From Squalus acanthias (taxonomy: Eukaryota), in assembly GCA_030390025.1 (NCBI GenBank), contig JASTWF010000326.1, positions 248,001 through 312,000 on the forward strand: DNA of 64,000 nucleotides, given 5' to 3'. The stretch's first letter is position 1. Each line of letters starts with the position of its first letter. The translations under genes and the position numbers were made by a program. The notes beneath the pieces were generated by a model. That model was not told the origin of the DNA. It made no database searches and was given only the letters and a program-made list of their open reading frames with translations. Shown here in pieces: positions 20,238-60,572 of the stretch.

Positions 20238-21042
20238 GGTGTGATCTTGCCAGCCCTGGGGAGGCGGGTCTGCCGGGAAAATGGCAGAATCTGGGGGCGG
20301 GTGCCCATCCCGCCCCCAACCCGTCTTCGTGCCATCTTGCCAGGAGGCGGGTAGCCGACCTGCGCCGGGTCCCATCTCCTTGGAGGCGGGATGGGGATGA
20401 CAGCCACTTAAATGTTAACAGGTAGTTAACAGGCAGATAAGAGGATTATCCCCATTTTACCCACACAAGTGCGGGCTTCCCGAAGGCTGCGAACCCCGCC
20501 AGGGTCACCGAGGCGAGCAGTGGGTCTGCTGGGGTCGGAGGGGTGCAAAAGTGCACTGTGGAGGTAAGTGATGGGTGCAAGTGTGGAGAGGTGAGTATGT
20601 GAGGTAAGTGGAAAGTGTTGGAAAAAGTTTAATTACCTTTGTTTCTTCCTGCAGGCTTCAATCGGTGGGTATGTGGAGAGTCTCGCATCTCCGTGGCAGA
20701 GATGACAGATGGCTGCTGCATTCTCCAATGCAACAACCATCTCATTTCTGCGAAAGAAAGAGGTTTGATGAGTCCTGAATTCAAGAACTCATCAAACTAC
20801 AGAGAATGTCAGTGTTGAGATAGCTTCACAGAGCTGTCAAAAATTGACAGCTGAAACGTCATACGCTGACGTTCTCTGTAACTGGCTTTCCCTTAATTGC
20901 CCTGCTAAGCCCACTGGGCGGGCTTAACGAGGTCAATCAAGGGAAAATAGCGTGGGTTGGCCAGAAGTTGATGGAGGTGGGACTAAAAACCGACAAGTGG
21001 GAGTCCCGCCTCCAAAAGCTCGCCATTGGCAAAATCCAGCCC
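20238..21042 (-). mobile_element. Harbinger-derived non-autonomous element, opposite orientation to the 28515/42372/53777 copies
   Basis: Ends ggtgtgatcttgcc / ggcaaaatccagccc; left flank TTA; shared motifs gttaacaggcag, ggaggcggg, gggcgggcttaac. Confidence 0.7.
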
Positions 21043-28514: not shown

Positions 28515-30063
28515 GGCCGTGATTTTCTCATCGGTGTCAGGATGGGGGCAGGTCAGCTGGTTTCCGGGTTCCAGTCCCGCCCCCTGCAGACGTGATTTTC
28601 CCTTGATTGGCTTTGTTAGGCCCGCAGGGCGGGCCTACCGGCCAATTAACAGGAAGCTGGTCTGATGATTTCATTTGATGACGCGTCATCTGCCGGTTTC
28701 TTTAAAGGGACCATGCACAATTTTATTTTGACTGTTGATTTTTCAGTGTTTGACAGCATTGAGGTGCTGAAAACACTGACAATCACTGCACAAAGGTGAA
28801 CTTTTGCATCCAGGCTGGCCAATGACTCCCTCCATATGCTTATGGAGGGAGTCACAGTACGCAGGGAGGTTCTCTTCCCTTCCCTTCCGAGGGCAGAAGA
28901 GACCTCCCCATGACACCAACTTACCTTGCACCTCCAAACAACCCTCTCTATCTACTTTATCACTTCCCCATCTCACTAGCTACCCCTCACGCTCACCCTC
29001 ATTCTACTGCAAGCATATCAACTAACAACACACAAGGGTGGGCACTTGAGAGGTTTAGCCAATGTCCATGTGAAGTTTCTGGTAATGTGTTGTCATACAG
29101 TGAAATCTCTTTTTCAAAAAGTGCCCCTTATTGGACAGATCTCAGCGCACATCGAGTTCCAGTGATTGTTCAGTCATAACTCTTAACCCACCCCTCCACC
29201 CCGCACCCCCCCCCCCCCCCCGCCCCGCTATAGTGATGTGTGTGCATGGAATGGCTTGTACATTAAAGGGATGCTTCACGGTGCTGGCGTGGGATGGTGT
29301 CAACCTGGCGCATCACGTGGCAGCCAGGGTTTACAACATCAAGTGAAGAAAGTCTGGCCATGGTGATGCCATCGCTGGCTTCCCAGCCAGCAATTTTGTC
29401 AGGGGCTGATGCCCTGTGTCCAGTGCAGCATCAGGTGATGGCGGCGAAGGTTGGTGATGTTGGGGATGATTGTGGAAGGATTCGGAGGACCAAGGTCTGA
29501 TTGTTTCATTGGCTCCGATGTTGCTGGAACAGATGGCAGCTGCAGGTGAGATGACAGAAGCGATCCGTCACTGGTGAGAGAGGTTCTCCCAATGAGGTGG
29601 CACTGGACATACAGTTGGATTTCAAAACTTGTAAGCTAAAGAAATCTGTATCTATATTAAGAATGTAGTAACCAACATTTTCTTGGCTCTGAAACTCACC
29701 ATGTGCAACATGGCATCCTTGACACCACTTCTGCAGCTGTTCTCACAAACATCAGACCAGACTCAACACGCCACACTTACCTGGCGTGTTGTCCTGACAT
29801 CGTAAAAGCCCGACCCAGAAGCTGGAAAATCGAAAAAGACCCTGAAAACTGCTCACAAGTACCTGTTAATAGGCAGTTAATTGCCTTTAATCCGTTTCCC
29901 GCCGCTAGGTGTCGGGTCCATTCGCAAATCGGGGACCCGACACTTGGGAAAGTTGTGTGGAGGCGGGATGACGGCGGGTGCGGAACCCGCCGTCAATCAA
30001 AACGACTTTCACCTCTGACCCGCCTCCAAACCCGCCCTCTGAGCGCCGGCAAAATCGCAGGCC
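28515..30063 (+). mobile_element. Harbinger/PIF non-autonomous element (1.55 kb) with Myb/SANT-like gene remnant
   Basis: TAA|ggccgtgattttc ... gcaaaatcgcaggcc|TAA; 28806-28883 reads ASRLANDSLHMLMEGVTVRREVLFPS, resembling the Harbinger Myb/SANT N-terminus. Confidence 0.85.
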
Positions 30064-31499: not shown

Positions 31500-34237
31500 A
31501 TAAGTCAAAGTTAATGGCACTATATCTGAATGAGTGAAGCATGTGCAACAAAATAAATGAATTAATAGCGCAGATAGAAATTAATAGGTTTAATTTAATA
31601 GCCATTACGGAGACGTGGTTGCAACGTGGCCAAGATTGGAAACTAAATATTCCAGGATACTTAACTTGAAGAGATAGGCAAAATGGAAAAGGAGGAGGGG
31701 TAGCCCTGATAACAAAGGATGGGATTACGACAGTAGAGAGAAAGGATCTTCGCTCCGAAAATCAAGAAGTAGAATCAGTTTGGGGGGAGCTAAGGAACAG
31801 CAAGGGGCAGAAAACATTGGTGGGAGTTATTTATAGGCCCCCAAACAATAGTTGTAACATAAGACAGAGTATAAATCAGGAAATTAGGAGGTGCATGTAC
31901 CAAGAATAATCCAGTCATCATGGGGGCCTTCAATCTACATATAGACTGGGCCAACCAAATTTGCAGTAATAGTGTGGAGGACGAATTAATGGAATGTATG
32001 CAAGATAGTTACGAGATCAGTATGTTGAGGAACCAACTAGGGAACAGGCTATTTTAGATGTAGTATTGTGCAACGAGAAAGGGTTAATTCATAACCTTGT
32101 AGTAAAGGGGCCTTTAGGGAAGAGTGACCATAAAGTGATTTAGTTAAATCCAAAACTAGGGTCTTAAATCTATACAAAGCAAACATACCTAGGTATGAGG
32201 GGTGAGTTGGCTAACGCAGATTGGGAAACTACATTAAAAATGTATGACAGTAGACAAGCAATGGCTAGCATTTAAAGAATTAATTCATAATTTACAACAA
32301 ATATACATTCCCTTAAGGCACAACACCCCCACACGAAAAGTGGTCCAACCGTGGCTAACAAGTTAAAGATAGTATTAGATCAAATGAAGAGGCTTATAAT
32401 GTTGCCAAAAAGAGTAGTAAGCCTGAGGATTGGGAGGATTTTAGAATTCAGCAAAGGAGGACAAAGAAATTGATAAAGAAAGGGAAAATAGAATGAGAGT
32501 AAACTAGCGAGAGACATACAAACAGATTGTAAAAGCTTCTATAGGTATGTAAAAAGGAAAAGATTAGCAAAAGTAAATTTGGGTCCCTTACAGGCTGAGA
32601 CAGGAGAAACTAAACAAATACTTTTGTTCTGACTTCGCGGAAGACAACGCAAAAAACTTCCCGGAAATAGTGGAGAACCAAGGGTCTATCGAGAATGAGG
32701 AACTGAAAGAAATTAATTAGTATAAAAAAGTACTGGAGAAATTAATGGGACTGAAAGCTGATAAAGCCCCTGGAACTGATGGCCTACATCCTAGGGTTTT
32801 GAAAGAACTGGCTATAGAGATATATATGGATGCATTGGTTGTCATTTTCCAAAATTCCATAGATTCTAGAATGGTTCCCGCAGATTGGAAGGTAGCAAAT
32901 GTAACCCCACTATTTAAGAAAGGAGGGAGAGAGAAAATGGGGAACTACAGACCAGTAAGCCTGACATCAGTAATAGGGAAAATGCTAGAATCTATTATTA
33001 AGGATGTGGTAACAGGGCACTTAGAAAATAATAATACGATAAGGCAGATCCAACACGGATTTATGAAAGGGAAATTGTGTTTGACAAATCTGTTGGAGTT
33101 TTTTGAGGTGGTAACGAGTAGAATAGATAAGGGGGAAACCAGTGAATGTGGTGTATTTGGATTTTCAGAAGGCATTCGATAAGGTGCCACACAAGAGATT
33201 ATTAAACAAAATTAGGGCTCATGGGATTGGGGGTAATATACTAGCATAGATTGAGGATTGGTTAATGGACAGAAAACAGGGCAGGAATAAACGGGTCATT
33301 TTCGGGTTGGCAGGCTGTAACTAGTGGGGTACCGCAAGGATCAGTGCTTGGGCCTCAGCTATTCACAATCTAGGTCAATGATTTGGATGAGGGGACCAAA
33401 TGTAATATATCCAGGTTTGCTGATGATACAAAGCTGGGTGGGAATGCAAGTTGTGAGGAGGATGCAAGGAGGCTTCAAGGGGATATAGTCAGGCTAAGTG
33501 AGTGGGCAAGAACATGGCAAATGGAATATAACGTGGAGAAATGTGAAGTTATCCACTTTGGTTGGAAATATAGAAAAGCAGAGTATTTTTTAAATTGAGA
33601 GAGATTGGGAAATGTTGGTGTTCAGAGGGACCTGGGTGTCCTTGTACACGAATCACAAAGTTAACATGCAGGTACAGCAAGCAATTAGGAAATCAAATGG
33701 TATGTTGGCCTTTATTACAAGAGGATTTGAGTATAAGAGTAAAGACGTCTTACTGCAATTATATAGGGCCCTGGTGAGACCACATCTGGAGTATTGTGTA
33801 CAGTTTTGGTCTCCTTACCTAAGGAAACATATACTTGCCATAGAGTGAGTGCAACAAAGGTTCACCAGACTGATTCCTAGGATGAGGGTATTGTCATAGG
33901 AGGAGAGATTGAGTAGACTAGGCCTATATTCTCTAGAGGTTAGAAGAATGAGAGGTGATCTCATTGAAACATACAACATTCTTACAGGGCTCGACAGGAT
34001 AGATGCAGGGCTGTGGAGTCTAGAACCAGGGGTCACAGTCTCAGAATAAGAGGTTGACCATTTAGGACTGAGATGAGGGGAAATTTCTTCACTCAGAGGG
34101 TGGTGAATCTTTGGAATTCTCTACCCCAGAGGGCTGTGGAGGCTCAGTCATTGAGTATATTCAAGACAGAGATCAATAGATTTTTAGATATTAAGGGAAT
34201 CAAGGGATATGGGGACAGTGCAGGAAAGTGGAGTTGA
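31500..34237 (+). pseudogene. CR1 ORF2 (APE endonuclease + reverse transcriptase), disrupted
   Basis: IAITETWL, GGGVAL, YRPP, SDH; KAPGTDGLHPRVLKE, NYRPVSLTS, QHGF, FADDTKL, RPHLEYCVQFWSP. Confidence 0.92.
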
Positions 34238-41720: not shown

Positions 41721-42371
41721 TGCGGAGAGTGTGCGCCTAAAATGGCTAACTGTTCGGTTCTCTAGCATGAGCACCCTCACTTTGATGGAAACGACAACAT
41801 CTTTCTGTAGCTCAGAATTAAAAAAACAAACTATGCTTGGCTATCCGTTTATCAGAGTAGAGATAGAAATTACATCAGAAAATCGAAGACAGAGAGAAGG
41901 AAATAAACAAAAAGGCTGAGATTTGAATTAAAATAAAAACTTGTTCAGGATGTGGGCGACACTGGCAAAGCACATACTTATTGTCCAACCAGAGTTGGTG
42001 GTGGTACACCTTCTTAAACTGCTGCATGCCTTCTGCTGATACCACTCCTACAACGGTGTTAGGTAGGGAACTGCAGGTTTTGACCCAGCAATTATATTAG
42101 CTGCTGTAATTGGCAATAAAAGTAAATTGAAGTACTGGAATTTCTAGAGATGTACAAAGCTTGCAGTATTTCTGATTGAATGCTCATGATACACTGTATA
42201 ACTCATTTGGTTAATTGTACAGTTTTCTGAAAAATATAATAAGCTCTATCACAACATCAATCCTTACTATATAGACTCGATAGGTCTTGTGGCACGAAAG
42301 TCTTTAACGGGCTGAAAGAACTACACAAATGTAATTTCTGCTTTAGTAGAGGTGAGTGAATCAGCAACTTA

Positions 42372-43214
42372 GGGCTGAATTTTACTTACCGAGACGAGTT
42401 GGGGGCGGGACTGCTGCCTTCCAGGTTCTTGTCCCACCCCCAGCGACGTCGGACGAACAGATGCTATTTTGCCCTGATTGGCCTTGTTGAGCCCGCACTG
42501 CGGGCTTGCCGGCCAATTAAGGGAAAGCCGGTGTCAGATGACGTCAGTTGATGACGCTTCATCTGCCGGTTTTCTTAAAAGGCACATGCACCACTCTTGT
42601 TTGACAGATGAATTGTCAGTGTTTGACAGCATTGAGGTGCTGTCAAACACTGACAATCACTGTACACAGGTGAGCCCCTGCACCCATGCTCTCCAATTAC
42701 TCTCTCCTTAGGATAAAACAGATGGTAGCTGCAGCTGAGATTGCAGAAGCCATCGGTCACTTCTCCCGATGAGATGAGGCTACACGAACACTTCAAAGCT
42801 TGTTACCTGCAGAAACATCTAACCACACTAAAAATTACTTTCACAACATGTCCTTACCTCTGATACTAACCATTGTCCCATTGCATCCCTCACACCACTT
42901 CTGCAGCTGTCATCCAAACATCAACATAACAGACTCACAGCACGCCTCACTTACCCTGGCGGGGTTCTCCGACATTGGGAAGCCCGCAGCAGCAGTCAAA
43001 AAATTGGGGAAAACCTTTTAACTGCCTGTTAACAGGCAGTTATGTGGCTATAATCCTCTTCCCGCCGCTAGGAGTCGGGTCCCTGCGCAAATCAGGGACC
43101 CGGCTCCCGGGAAGATTGGTTGGAGGCGGGTTCGGGACCCGCTCCCATTCTGTTTAACTTTCCCAGCAGTCCCGCCTCCAAACCCGCCTCCTCAGGGCTG
43201 GTAAAATCCAGCCC
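42372..43214 (+). mobile_element. Harbinger non-autonomous element (843 bp)
   Basis: TTA|GGGCTGAATTTTAC ... GTAAAATCCAGCCC|TTA: 14-bp TIR with 1 mismatch and a perfect TTA TSD. Confidence 0.92.
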
Positions 43215-44245: not shown

Positions 44246-47200
44246 GAGAGTTTCAGAAACCAGCAAAGGTTGACAAAAAATTTGATAAAAAGGGAAAAAA
44301 TAGAATGAGAGAAAACTAGCAAGAAATATAAAAGCAGATTGTAAGAGTTTCTACAAGTGTGTAAAAAGGAAAAGAGTAGCAAAAGTAAACATTGGTCCCT
44401 TAGAGGCTGAGACAGGAGAAATTATTATGGGGAATAAGGAAATGGCAGAAACGTTAGACAAATATTTTGTATCTGTCTTCACTGTAGGCGGTGGTGGTTT
44501 GTGTCAGCTTTACCTCTGACTTCGGAGCGGTTCGAATTGCTCCCACTCCCTTGGTTCTTGACCTTGGACTTATTTGGGGGTTGTGATACAAAAGGTGCAG
44601 CAGACAACTGAGTTTGATGAAAGAACGTCAATCTTTATTAAAAGGTAAGAGACAAATAATAACACTCATCACTCTAAAGGTGGGGAACACTTTGGTACAA
44701 GCGAGGGAAATGACAGTAGGACAATACTTCACCCCTCCCAACCCCACTTTACTAGCTTAGTTAGGTTTTGAAGGACCAGGGATAATGCTCACCAATCCTT
44801 TGACAGTTGGGCTAAATCGCGGTTTTGGGGTTCGCTGTTTATGGCGGTTAGTGTCTGCCGTACCCCGTACGCGGTAGAGGACTTCACCTGGGTCTCTGGT
44901 CAGTCTTCGCGAGTCCGCTGATGCGGTAGGATGTCGTTTTGGATTTATCTGGTGAGTACCCAATTTCTTTAGTTTAGCAGTAGGGCTTAGAATCTTTGGG
45001 GAAAATCTTACCCAGGGGTAAGTCAGGAGTAGTTTGTAGTGTGGAAACTTTGCGATTCTTCAGGTTTTCTTCCCTGGAGTTGGTCTTTGTTGGTCGCGGT
45101 GGCCTGCGATTACCCGGTTAGTTGGGGGTAATGCGCGGTTCTTGGTTTCGTGAGGCCTTTGGTTTCCGCGATGGCTTTAGGCCTTGTTTTGTGTGTCGGT
45201 CGACCTCGTGGAGCTGTCGGTGACTTGTTGTTCCGGGTGACTGTGTTGGGAGGTTGTTGGAGGTCCGTCGAGGTGGTGTCTTCGCGAGCTGGACTCAGGT
45301 GTGTCTGAGTGGTGAGCGATGCCGACTCGCTTCCTTCTCGGGCCGCCTTCTTCTTGGTCTCTCCTCCTTCTGATGACCACTGGTTGCGACTGACTGCTCG
45401 ACCCAACGACGTTGAACTGTGGTGTTTCTCTCTCTTCTTCTCCCGTGTGCTTGGTGGGCCTTCAATTATACAGAATTGAAGTGGCCTTATCTACCCGCCA
45501 AATCTACTCGGTTCATTGTCTAGTTTTGGCGGGCTCGTAAATCGGTAACGATTTACTAGCACGTTAACTGGGTTTTAACAGGCCTTCAATCTCACCCATT
45601 GAATATGGCCTTATCTACCCGCAAATCTGCTCAGTTCATTGTCTGAATTTGGCGGGCCTGCTACCAGTAACTGCTCTGTAAGTGTCAAATGGGTTTTGGG
45701 ATGGTTTGCATCCTGTAGATCTCCTTGGCTGATTGCTGGTGATTGGTTTCATGTTTTGGGTTTCTAGGCTGATCTATAGCCTAGTCCTGGGTGCTCTGTA
45801 TTATGCATGTTTCCTGATGGGCCCTGTAATCGGTTTGATGGGACCTGTTGTTTTGGGTGGGACTGTCTTCTCCTAGGGTCTATTGTCAAAATGTTAATGC
45901 ATGCTGGGGCTTTGAGTGAGGTCATCCCGGTTCCCCAGACAATGCAATTAACTACAATACCCAAAACTGCTTTTACAGAGGTTGAACCCACCTCTTGTTC
46001 CTTTACAGGCCCAGACATAGTTTTAAAATGCCAAAACTTGGTTTTTGGTCTTACAGTCTCTTAGGTTAGGCCCAAATACAATATTATCACTCTGAGGTAG
46101 TTCCAAAGTCCTTTTTCCTTCAGTTTTGGGGATCTGTAAATTTTGGAAACATTACACACAGTAGAAGACACAAAAAGCATATCAAAAATGGTGGCGAACC
46201 AAGGGTCTAATGAGGGCGAGGAACTTAACGTAATTAATATAAGTAGAGAAAAAGTACTAGAGAAACTAATGGGACCAAAAGCCGACAAATTCCCTGGGCC
46301 CGACGGTCTACATCCTAGGGTTCTAAAAGAGGTGGCTGAAGAGATAGTGGATACATTGGTTTTGATCTTCCAAAATTCCCTAGATTCTGGAGAGGTCCCA
46401 GTGGATTGGAAGGTCGCAAATGTAACACCGCTATTCAATAAAGGAGGGAGAGAGAAAACAGGGAACTACAGGCGAGTTAGCCTGACATCAGTCATCGGGA
46501 AAATGCTGGAATCCATTCTTAAGGAAGTGGTATCAAGTCACTTAGAAAATCATAACATGATTAGGCAGAGTCAACATAGTTTTATGAAAGGGAAATCATG
46601 TTTGACAAATATATTAGAGTTTTTTTTTGAGGATGTAACTGGCAGGGTAGATAAATGGGAACCAGTGGATGTAGTATATTTGGATTTCCAAAAGGCATTC
46701 GATAAGGTGCCACATGAAAGGTTATTACACAAGATTAGGGCTCATGGGGTTGGGGGTAATATGGATAGAGGATTGGTTAACTGACAGAAAACAGACAGTA
46801 GGGATAAACAGATCTTTTTCAGGTTGGCAGGCTGTAACTAGTGGGGTGCCGCAAGGATCAGTGTTGGGGCCTCAGCTATTTACAATCTATATTAAAATGA
46901 CCTAGATGAAGGGACCGAGTTTAATGTATCCAAGTTTGCTGATGATACAAAGCTAGGTGGGTCAGTAAGCTGTGAGGAGAACACAAAGAGTCTACAAAGG
47001 GATATAGATAGCCTAAGTGAGTGGGCAGTAAGGTGGCACATGGAGTATAATGTAGGGAAATGTGAAGTTATTCACTTTAGTAGGAAGAATAGAAAAACAA
47101 TATTTTTTAAATGGTGAGAAACTTTCAAATGTTGGTGTTCAGAGAGATTTGGGTGTCCTCCTGCAAGAAACACAGAAAGCTAGCATGCAGGTACAGCAAG

Positions 47201-53665: not shown

Positions 53666-53776
53666 CCAGGGAATTATCACAAGTTGTTAGTTGTTACACT
53701 TCAAATAATGTAAAGCGTGCACTTGAGATTTTTTTCATTTGTGCTCATAGGGTAGTATCCGGAAGACAGACATTGA

Positions 53777-54623
53777 GGCCGTGATTTTTCCGGTCGATGC
53801 AGCTTGGGGGTGGGACAGCTGCCTTCCGGGTTCCAGTCCCGCCCCCAACGACGTCCGACACAGAGACGCGATTTTGCGTCAATTGGCCATGTTAAGCCCG
53901 CCCTGCGGGCTTGCCGGCCAATGAAGAGGAAGCCAGTGTCAGATGACGTGTCATCTGCCAGTTCTCTTAAAGGGGCCACACACAATTTTTTTTGACAGCT
54001 GATTTTTGTGTTTGACAGCATTGAGGTGCTGCAAACACTGACAATCACTGTACAAAGGTGAGCCTTTGCACCCAGGCTCTCCAGTGACTCCCTCCTTAGG
54101 CTAGAACAGATGGCAGCTGCAGGTGAGGTTACAGAAGCAATGTGTCACTGGTGAGAGAGGTTCTCCCAATGAGGTGGGACTACACAAACAATTCAAAACT
54201 GGTCACCTACAGAAAAGTCTAAATACATTAAAAATGATTTTCGCAACATTTTCTTACCTCTGAAACTCACCAGTGTACCATTGGATCCTTCACACCACTT
54301 CTGCAGCTGTCATCATTACAAACATTACAGTAGACCCACAGCACACCACACTTACCTGGCATGGTGTCCAGACGTCGGGAAACCCGCAGTAGACCTATCA
54401 AAATTGCAAAAAGCCTCTTAACTGCCTGTTAACAAGCAGTTAAGTGCCTATAATCTTCTTCCCGCCACTAGGTGTCGGGTCCATGCGCAAATCGGGGACC
54501 TGACACCTGGGAAGATTATCTGGAGGCGGGTTGACAGCAGGTTTCTGACCCGCTGTCAATCTTTACGCTTTTGCCGGATGTCCCGCCTCCAAACCCACCC
54601 CGAACGCCGGCAAAATTCCCCCC
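53777..54623 (+). mobile_element. Harbinger non-autonomous element, same subfamily as 42372-43214
   Basis: ggccgtgattttt ... gcaaaattcccccc; collinear with the other copies over its length. Confidence 0.85.
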
Positions 54624-59205: not shown

Positions 59206-60572
59206 TGTAAGGTTTTCAAAATTTGCAGATCCCCAAAACCTAAGGAAAAAGGACTTTGGAACTACCTCAGAGTGATAAAAATGCATTTGGGCCTAACCTA
59301 AGAGACTGTAAGACCAAAAACCAAGTTTTGGCATTTTAAAAACATGTCTGGGCCTGTAAAAGGAGAAATGGCTGTGAAGGAAGTTGGGGTCGACCTCTGC
59401 AAAAGCAGTTTTGGGTATTGCAGTTAAATTGCATTGTCTGGGGAATCGGGATGACCTCACTCAAAGCCCCAGCATGCATTAACATTTTGATAATAGACCC
59501 TAGGAGGAGACAGTCCCACCCAAAACAACAGGTCCCATCAAACCAATTACAGAACCCATTAAAGACATGCATAAAGCAAATATTCAATCGAAGTCCTAGG
59601 CCCAGTCAAGAAACCAAAAACATGAGGACAATTCAAACTCTGATTCAACAACAGATCGACAGGATGGAGCTATCCTGAAACCACTTCACACATTTACAAA
59701 ACCAGTCAACACGCTAGTAAAGTCGTTACTGTTAACGAGGTCTTACAATGACCGGGATTTGATTTGGCTTTGATAAGGCCACTTCAATTTAGGATCATTG
59801 AAGGCCCATCAAGCAGTTCAAAAAAAAGCAGTAACAACAGTTCAAGTTCAACAGTTCAAGTTCAACAGAAGGCAGTTCTGCATTTCAATTTGAAAGCTTG
59901 TTTTTCAGCAGAAGTCAGTGCTGGAATTACAGAGTTCAGGAGAAGCAAGTTGGGCAGTTAAAGAAGACAGTTCAGTAAGAAGGAAGTTCTCCAGTAAAAC
60001 AGTTCAAGTTCAACAAGCAGGCAGAAGGCAGTTTCCACAGTTCTGCAAGAAGGCAGTTCTACAGCTCGGAAGAAGACAATTTAAACAGAGGCAGAGTTCA
60101 ACAGAAAGAAGTACAACAAAGAAGGCCAGCCGTTCAAGAGATCAGAGCGACCGCCTCAGTGACCATCGGACACCTCGCGGCAACAAGGGCCTTACAAAAC
60201 CTTTTACTCAAAAGACTCTAAACCCTAACTCTCAACTGTCAAGAACTGTCATTTGGTGAGCATTATCCCTGATCTTCTGGAATCAAACCTAGCTAGGCAG
60301 TGGGATTTGGGAGGGATAAGGGTTTTTGTATATTGTAATTCTCCTCGCCTGTACCGTGTGTTCCCCAACCTGTGTTTAAGCATTAAGTGTGTTTTAAGTT
60401 TGTTACCTTTTCTTTAATAAAAGTCAAAACTCTTTCATCAAAACCTGTTGTCTACTGCATCTTTGTTCACAACCCCCAAATAAGTCCAAGGTCTAGAACC
60501 AGGGGCGTGGGAGTGATTCGAACCACTCACTGAGTCAGAGGTGAACCTGACCCCCACACACCACCCCCTACA
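59206..60572 (+). mobile_element. Solo LTR, 1.37 kb
   Basis: tatg|TGtaagg ... cctaCA|taag (4-bp TSD, 1 mismatch); aataaa ~60416; (cagttcaa)-type repeats at 59813-60100. Confidence 0.87.

Follow-up and report, generated by a model that had tools for sequence, protein, structure and literature searches.

The window, that is, the whole 64,000-nt stretch of DNA analysed here, contains two solo LTRs of a high-copy retrovirus, and both carry at their U5 end a small module of paired arms whose opposite strand looks like part of a tRNA. The features are as follows, F1 being the LTR family of the window copies and F2 to F5 its sister families.

44483..46156, minus strand (viral sense): solo LTR copy A, 1674 bp, TGTA...TACA
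44483..44486, minus strand: U5 terminus (att end), TGTA, followed in full-length copies by 3-4 nt and the tRNA-Arg(UCG) primer-binding site (PBS)
44487..44494, minus strand: outer U5 stem, 3' arm in sense RNA (the acceptor-like 5' arm of the preliminary description)
44503..44520, minus strand: hairpin H2 (previously the anticodon arm), 5-bp stem, purine-rich 7-10-nt loop, F1-specific
44525..44542, minus strand: hairpin H1 (previously the T arm/B box), 5-bp stem, 8-nt loop
44529-44535, minus strand: sense word TCGAACC of H1, complement of primer tRNA 52-58
44543..44550, minus strand: outer U5 stem, 5' arm in sense RNA
44554..44558, minus strand: junction word AGAAC, also complementary to the primer T loop but more weakly
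44560..44626, minus strand: U5 strand predicted to pair, in full-length RNA, with the end of the PBS and ~50 nt following it
44634..44639, minus strand: AATAAA polyadenylation signal, in a direction that agrees with the PBS side
59206..60572, plus strand: solo LTR copy B, 1367 bp, TGTA...TACA, of a different subfamily from copy A
~60500-60572: U5 module of copy B, reading from 60572 on the minus strand as in copy A

All the segments listed in the preliminary description were found in place (TGTA at 44483-44486, GTCAG/CTGAC at 44503-44520 and GAGCG-GTTCGAAT-TGCTC at 44525-44542), as were the outer arms of copy A (44487-44494 and 44543-44550) and the second module on the minus strand from 60572, and the feature does belong to an LTR family, as had been claimed. 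Copy A is inserted in a LINE, which we take to be CR1-like, and the flanking LINE halves match 32430-33104. A U3 block is duplicated at a 124-bp period in copy A (window 45455-45660) and is a single unit in copy B. A separate repeat family has several copies with internal inverted repeats in the window (28587-30037, 42362-43200, 53767-54600 and 20415-20953), including self-inverted segments at 42398-42442 and 53805-53849 in the copies at 42362-43200 and 53767-54600. Being solo LTRs without a PBS, copies A and B are inert for a primer role, and for the same reason the strand at 44560..44626 has no partner in the window copy.

The first 318 nt, used as a query, returned 2570 candidates in the 3.7-Gb genome. 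Among the best 30 copies, 25 had both ends in range, and a 4-bp target site duplication (TSD) was exact in 16 of these 25 loci and carried one mismatch in 5 more. When the loci were searched for TGG just past the LTR end, 10 of 30 turned out to have a common PBS immediately beyond U5, in a sample that includes 3 unrelated loci. Its 18 nt are perfectly complementary to the 3' terminus of the host tRNA-Arg(UCG), and full-length copies thus have the normal PBS that the preliminary description had proposed to look for. As 44483 is the U5 end and the PBS lies directly beyond it, the tRNA-like reading runs antisense to the RNA of the virus, the orientation already assigned to it.

Twelve PBS-bearing copies encode gag, protease, RT, two RNase H domains and integrase, with env in some, and pol carries a tether and a second RNase H (dual RNase H). 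With TG...CA ends and TSD, a tRNA PBS, pol and env, the element is an endogenous retrovirus and not of a new kind. Such a gene set (gag, pro, RT, tether, RNase H, IN and env) rules out a non-autonomous TRIM of the Helenus or Cassandra type, the second of which the preliminary description had named as a parallel. The element does share with the Helenus, Cassandra and Ajax TRIMs tRNA-like letters with GGTTC (box B) inside the LTR, and with animal Helenus the 4-bp TSD, but in the consulted sections of the source those TRIMs are ~1 kb long and non-coding with boxes A and B, whereas here the LTRs measure 1.4-1.7 kb, the interior is neither short nor non-coding, and no A box is conserved (PMC10886601). 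Amplified gag-env elements without pol (L068, L224, L225, L232) and gag-only elements with pol mostly deleted (L061, L071, L219, L221-L223) are non-autonomous forms that retain the U5 module.

Snakehead retrovirus (SnRV) has an Arg primer and a Gag coiled coil. Compared by eye, the RT motifs of our element are nearer to the SnRV row than to the Loki rows of a published alignment, and the Loki-typical RT words SRWPM, RCPFGY and EFNIFL are absent, also by eye, so that the RT does not look like that of a lokiretrovirus. On these motifs the retrovirus looks SnRV-like, in the manner of SnRV and the elephant-shark CmiERV lineage I as far as the consulted sections describe them (PMC4422223, PMC7947760). 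Homologues of Env occur in a skate and a sawshark, and the host is therefore probably a cartilaginous fish. The C-terminal part of Env has Atlas features at 0.93 to clusters with 21-27% PF00523 (paramyxovirus-type fusion proteins); Env gave no Pfam match and no PDB sequence match, and its single-sequence structure model (pLDDT 31.8) gave no usable fold. The Env at L085:6491-8914 (minus strand) has a signal peptide, a weak Ig-like domain and an RQRR site. In contrast to the RT, which looks SnRV-like, Env scores on the Atlas features as fusion-protein-like, a trait described for lokiretroviruses, and an env exchange is possible.

Sites with an Arg(UCG) PBS after an LTR-like ACA number 3094 in the genome; among the first 100 on the list, most belong to F3, with near-identical copies. 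In F1 and F3 the gag ATG lies inside the PBS (ATG GCG ACC) in a strong context (L061-L072, L264-L293); F2 and F4 have TTG at that PBS position and an ATG further downstream. As the gag frame opens inside the PBS in F1 and F3, the post-PBS helix strand discussed below is coding in some families. On the host side, tRNA-Arg(UCG) genes have introns and lie in 1.6-kb tandem arrays with tRNA-Ser(GCT) (L074, L078, L083; L148-L167), one copy (L073) being intronless, and tRNA-Pro genes appear intron-bearing too.

The module is not a tRNA gene, since no cloverleaf with a D arm was called; the absence of the D arm had been recognized from the start. ARAGORN found no tRNA in the window, and on 113 collected modules, a tRNA-finder check of the kind suggested by the preliminary description, it made no call at default settings or at -ps95 and 5 of 113 at -ps90. 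An Rfam search of 44400-46250 gave no tRNA match at E<=10, and isolated 73-75-nt pieces folded no better than shuffles, as RNA (z -0.31 to -1.83) or as DNA (z +0.05 to -1.14). At the family level the feature is not chance, because the exact 18-nt H1 hairpin occurs 3941 times in the genome against 0 for the control and because H1 covaries in five LTR families.

Within F1, H1 is well conserved. Its loop core is retained in 354 PBS-bearing copies, and over 15 copies chosen to span the subfamilies column identity in H1 was 0.97, compared with 0.89 in the U5 sequence upstream, 0.80 in the loop of H2 and 0.72 in the spacer that follows H2. Departures from H1 are mostly CpG-type single changes, in a sample fetched in part with patterns demanding the motif. 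The stem difference between copies A and B was considered as covariation and rejected: of 31 further copies whose linker is of the copy B type, none has the copy B state, so that it is private CpG decay, the caveat raised in the preliminary description, and the window copies give no covariation. Contigs from three organisms cover the F1 U5 and show presence only; inside H1 the only alternative letter that they list at a 20% share falls on a position at which the reference copy is itself deviant.

Two readings of the H2 loop were also tried and rejected. As a splice donor, most loops read AG/GTRA, yet copies with GGGAAAGG and AGGCGAG keep env and the acceptor, and no U5-env joint was found among the joints listed in the contigs. 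As a GNRA loop, 110 of 113 fit the pattern, but this fit is weak because 804 of the 914 loop positions are purines.

The sister families allowed us to separate what is conserved from what is particular to F1. Pol of F2 is ~81% and that of F4 ~75% identical, and gag of F3 ~40%; F2, F3 and F4 were found by RT and PBS searches in which the hairpin was not used, while F5 was found with a pattern that contains the motif. LTR ends are mostly unalignable between families, except between F1 and F5 and over short stretches, and H1 is present in all five. Across the five families, 3 of the 5 stem pairs of H1 show changes on both sides and 95% of cells are paired, against 22-48% in slid controls. In a shuffle test of H1 the covariation score was reached by 0 of 500 shuffles and the pair count by 120 of 500; as the 12 rows are hand-picked and related, the shuffle figure is not a probability. 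TCGAACC is the only 7-mer common to all six representatives, and for the four families found without the motif any shared 7-mer appeared in 0 of 1000 shuffles.

The H1 loop reads ATTCGAAC or GGTCGAAC. The GG form occurs in 10 of 27 F3 copies, namely GGTCGAAC in 9 and GGTCGAAA in one, and represents an amplified subfamily. In F2, one pair is G-U in sense in 5 of 8 copies and is a mismatch (A-C) on the other strand. The distance from the H1 loop to the LTR end is 21, 40, 45, 47 or 131-134 nt depending on the family, and H2 is replaced by another hairpin in F2 and F5 and by several in F3, whereas F4 has none. Therefore, the cloverleaf is a spacing feature of F1, and the conserved object is the H1 hairpin alone, in disagreement with the conserved tRNA fold of the preliminary description.

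H1 is absent from two more distant Arg-primed families and from one Pro-primed family, and all H1-bearing families share one primer. The junction word AGAAC is found in six of six representatives (F1-F5), TGAAC occupies a like place in two distant Arg-primed families, the Pro-primed family has no junction word, and where the PBS is Arg(CCU)-like the junction of one family reads TTGAACCC, the last two observations being post hoc. In the U5 of a distant family (L244-L249) with an Arg(CCU)-like PBS, TTCGAAC lies in a 7-bp stem with a 4-nt loop and not in the loop. Pattern scans gave 13 matches in a viral collection and 3 in a metagenome collection, all GC-rich look-alikes without the hairpin. A search of the openly accessible literature found no account of such a structure in fish endogenous retroviruses.

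We then considered on which strand the module may act. Sense leaders of F1-F4 share the same predicted plan, a long U5:post-PBS helix around the U5 arm and the PBS. Because the sequence that pairs with U5 is encoded beyond the LTR, only the 5' end of full-length RNA could adopt such a fold. For seven copies the sense leader z-scores were -6.0, -7.0, -0.6, -5.0, -3.1, -4.1 and 0.0, and the antisense ones, in the same order, -3.3, -5.0, -0.6, -2.3, -2.5, -4.9 and +0.7; five sense leaders thus range from -3.1 to -7.0, L292 and L199 are no better than shuffles, and the antisense fold is better than the sense one in L264 and level in L199. For the F1 alignment the sense fold is worth -45.8 kcal/mol and the antisense fold -41.0, and the antisense consensus no longer contains H2; changes on both sides affect 7 of 61 pairs in sense (over 15 copies) and 11 of 59 in antisense. 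Read as sense, the 39 Watson-Crick-majority pairs of the long helix depart as G-U in 35 cells and as A-C in 12 (9 and 2 pairs, respectively, for departures in at least two rows), a count made on related copies and on a helix predicted on the sense strand. H1 covariation is nearly equal on both strands (95.0% sense, 93.3% antisense). Taken together, the strand evidence leans towards a sense fold. The GU-rich U5 stretch downstream of AATAAA (window 44560-44626) is predicted to pair with post-PBS sequence only at the 5' LTR, and this pairing could mask the 5' polyadenylation site.

We propose that the U5 end beside the tRNA-Arg(UCG) PBS probably acts in the sense RNA, as part of a PBS-domain fold in which the H1 loop pairs with the T loop of the primer. 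U5 would pair with the sequence just past the PBS and close a junction holding the PBS and a U5 arm (outer stem, H1 and optional extra hairpins). The PBS would take nucleotides 59-76 of the tRNA, freeing nucleotides 49-58; UCGAACC in H1 would then pair with G52-A58, while GAAC at the junction would perhaps pair with the T loop as well. Such a pairing may position or activate the primer, as proposed for the primer activation signal (PAS) of HIV and for U5 of avian sarcoma virus, and would hold the closing G of the H1 loop fixed. Read on the opposite strand, an anti-T-loop word displayed in a hairpin would resemble a T arm and a B box. In this way the tRNA look is most likely the mirror image of a viral RNA fold and not a tRNA copy or a promoter. 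Among the options offered by the preliminary description, an involvement in priming is thus the one that is favoured, as a predicted PAS-like contact, while the Pol III promoter and a conserved tRNA fold are not supported.

The evidence for this proposal includes, besides the PBS, the sense folds and the H1 covariation given above, the match between the word and the part of the primer that is left free. In five families TCGAACC lies upstream of the PBS and complements G52-A58, the stretch of the T arm freed when the PBS binds 59-76, which makes a PAS-like contact the likeliest role, and the two variable loop letters (AT or GG) face tRNA positions 59-60, already used by the PBS. The predicted duplex of the loop with the free part of the tRNA is worth -10.6 to -12.4 kcal/mol, compared with -3.7 to -5.1 for self-pairing of the loop. 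A58 is normally methylated, which would shorten the duplex to 6 bp. As GGTTCGA is common to many tRNAs (Ser-GCT, Arg-CCT), the complementarity of H1 is not specific evidence for the Arg primer, and duplexes of the whole module with tRNA-Arg are clearly above shuffles in only 1 of 12 copies. A pairing with the anticodon arm (AGTCAGA with tRNA 27-33) was also considered and rejected, H2 being different or absent in F2-F5 and a TGTCAG subfamily existing within F1.

Contacts between U5 and the primer T arm have been described for HIV-1, HIV-2 and avian sarcoma virus, and, in the sections of the sources consulted, the PAS pairing is disputed even in HIV (PMC3185550, PMC11181671). Our element resembles HIV-1 PAS/anti-PAS, HIV-2 U5:T-stem and avian sarcoma virus U5:T-psi-C in having a short U5 word upstream of the PBS that is complementary to the primer T arm, and in its predicted structured PBS segment closed by U5 pairing past the PBS (PMC3185550, PMC11181671). 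Unlike the HIV PAS, which is 8 nt long and lies in a helix, the word here sits in an 8-nt hairpin loop and targets 52-58, a second partial word lies 20-24 nt upstream, and the contact is deduced from natural covariation only (PMC3185550, PMC11181671). The tRNA-like element and the PBS three-way junction of HIV-1 likewise present a tRNA-looking cluster of U5 hairpins just before the PBS, but the HIV element mimics an anticodon on the sense strand (PMC11181671), whereas in our case the resemblance to a tRNA is on the antisense strand and the arm that recalls an anticodon arm is not conserved.

It is unlikely that H1 instead serves to dimerise the genomic RNA through a kissing loop. Its loop has the self-complementary core UUCGAA, giving a 6-nt palindrome in an 8-nt loop on a stem that covaries in five families, and because gag starts at or just after the PBS, with the ATG inside it in F1 and F3, a dimer signal may have to sit in U5. 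On the contrary, the GG-loop subfamily of F3 (GGTCGAAC) is left with a 4-nt palindrome (-3.7 kcal/mol), a replacement palindrome is found in no family, and a dimer would have no need of the final CC of TCGAACC.

On the other strand the fixed letters of H1 read GGTTCGANNC and suit a B box and a true T-loop fold alike, so that both of these readings predict the same invariants; a stem that covaries, the lack of an A box and the bias towards G-U in sense speak against both. For the T-loop reading, the strand concerned does exist in single-stranded form during priming. We regard it as quite unlikely that the other strand of H1 is a real T-loop mimic, in minus-strand strong-stop DNA or antisense RNA, bound by RT, Gag or a host tRNA-binding factor. 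Both loop variants exactly fit G53-U54...A58-N-N-C61, with changes at 59-60 only, and the stem covaries on the antisense strand too; however, the majority pair of F2 is A-C on that strand, the G-U bias favours sense, folding of the DNA is weak, and neither a D arm nor a conserved T-loop partner is present.

That the word is a B box, which would give thousands of LTRs a Pol III promoter in antisense or a binding site for TFIIIC, is very unlikely; a promoter or insulator of this sort had been suggested in the preliminary description. The B-box-shaped word is indeed conserved, its invariant antisense letters matching the consensus with GGTTC kept and the exact hairpin present in 3941 copies, and some copies of F1 subfamily B (L040, L046, L054) have, by eye, an A-box-like 12-mer with one mismatch at tRNA-like spacing. 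That mismatch falls on the key A, though, an exact A box occurs in 0 of 6 representatives (0 mismatches in the host tRNA control), and the distance to the LTR end varies from 21 to 134 nt, one family thus leaving 21 nt of room. In addition, a double-stranded DNA site would not need the covarying stem in which the word is enclosed. Helenus, a short non-coding TRIM, keeps both box A and box B according to the sections consulted (PMC10886601).

Equally improbable is a sense hairpin that binds a protein in the PBS domain, be it Gag, RT or a factor of the host (a synthetase or helicase, for example), in the manner of the tRNA-like element or three-way junction of HIV, the T-loop match being incidental. 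A fixed loop sequence on a covarying stem would suit it, and the junction architecture recalls the PBS segment of HIV as the consulted sections present it (PMC3185550, PMC11181671); this explanation nevertheless leaves the exact anti-52-58 word and the free positions facing 59-60 unaccounted for, and the sense loop does not mimic the Arg anticodon. Finally, U5 as a captured primer tRNA or tRNA-derived SINE, its tRNA look a fossil, is extremely improbable: the module matched tRNA-Arg at p 0.002-0.048 in 12 of 12 related copies against a control set of 5 tRNA types, and copy A shares 12 nt with the anticodon arm, but with the T loop masked p is <0.05 in only 2 of 12, tRNA-Ser(GCT) scores equally well, the 12-nt match hangs on a private letter, the arm is missing in sister families, and an origin alone leaves the covariation unexplained, so that beyond the T loop the resemblance to tRNA-Arg is unconvincing.

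Returning to the contact between H1 and the primer T loop, a bolder version, which we put forward as doubtful, is that in the Arg-primed snakehead-like retroviruses of cartilaginous fish an anti-T-loop hairpin loop and a partial copy at the junction would hand over the freed T loop to switch on reverse transcription, the T-loop/B-box shape of the copied strand, present in thousands of LTRs, being perhaps offered to TFIIIC.

In conclusion, the structure is real, conserved, of a known type and well backed by natural covariation, and its variant features are the display of the word in a loop and the presence of two anti-T-loop words. If the proposed role is true, natural sequence variation in a deep retrovirus lineage would lend phylogenetic support to a primer contact over which there is still dispute for HIV, and there would be a short RNA system in which to test that contact. 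It would also be a warning that a "tRNA in an LTR" can be the mirror of an anti-tRNA signal, and that scans of LTRs for B boxes should check the strand and the PBS.
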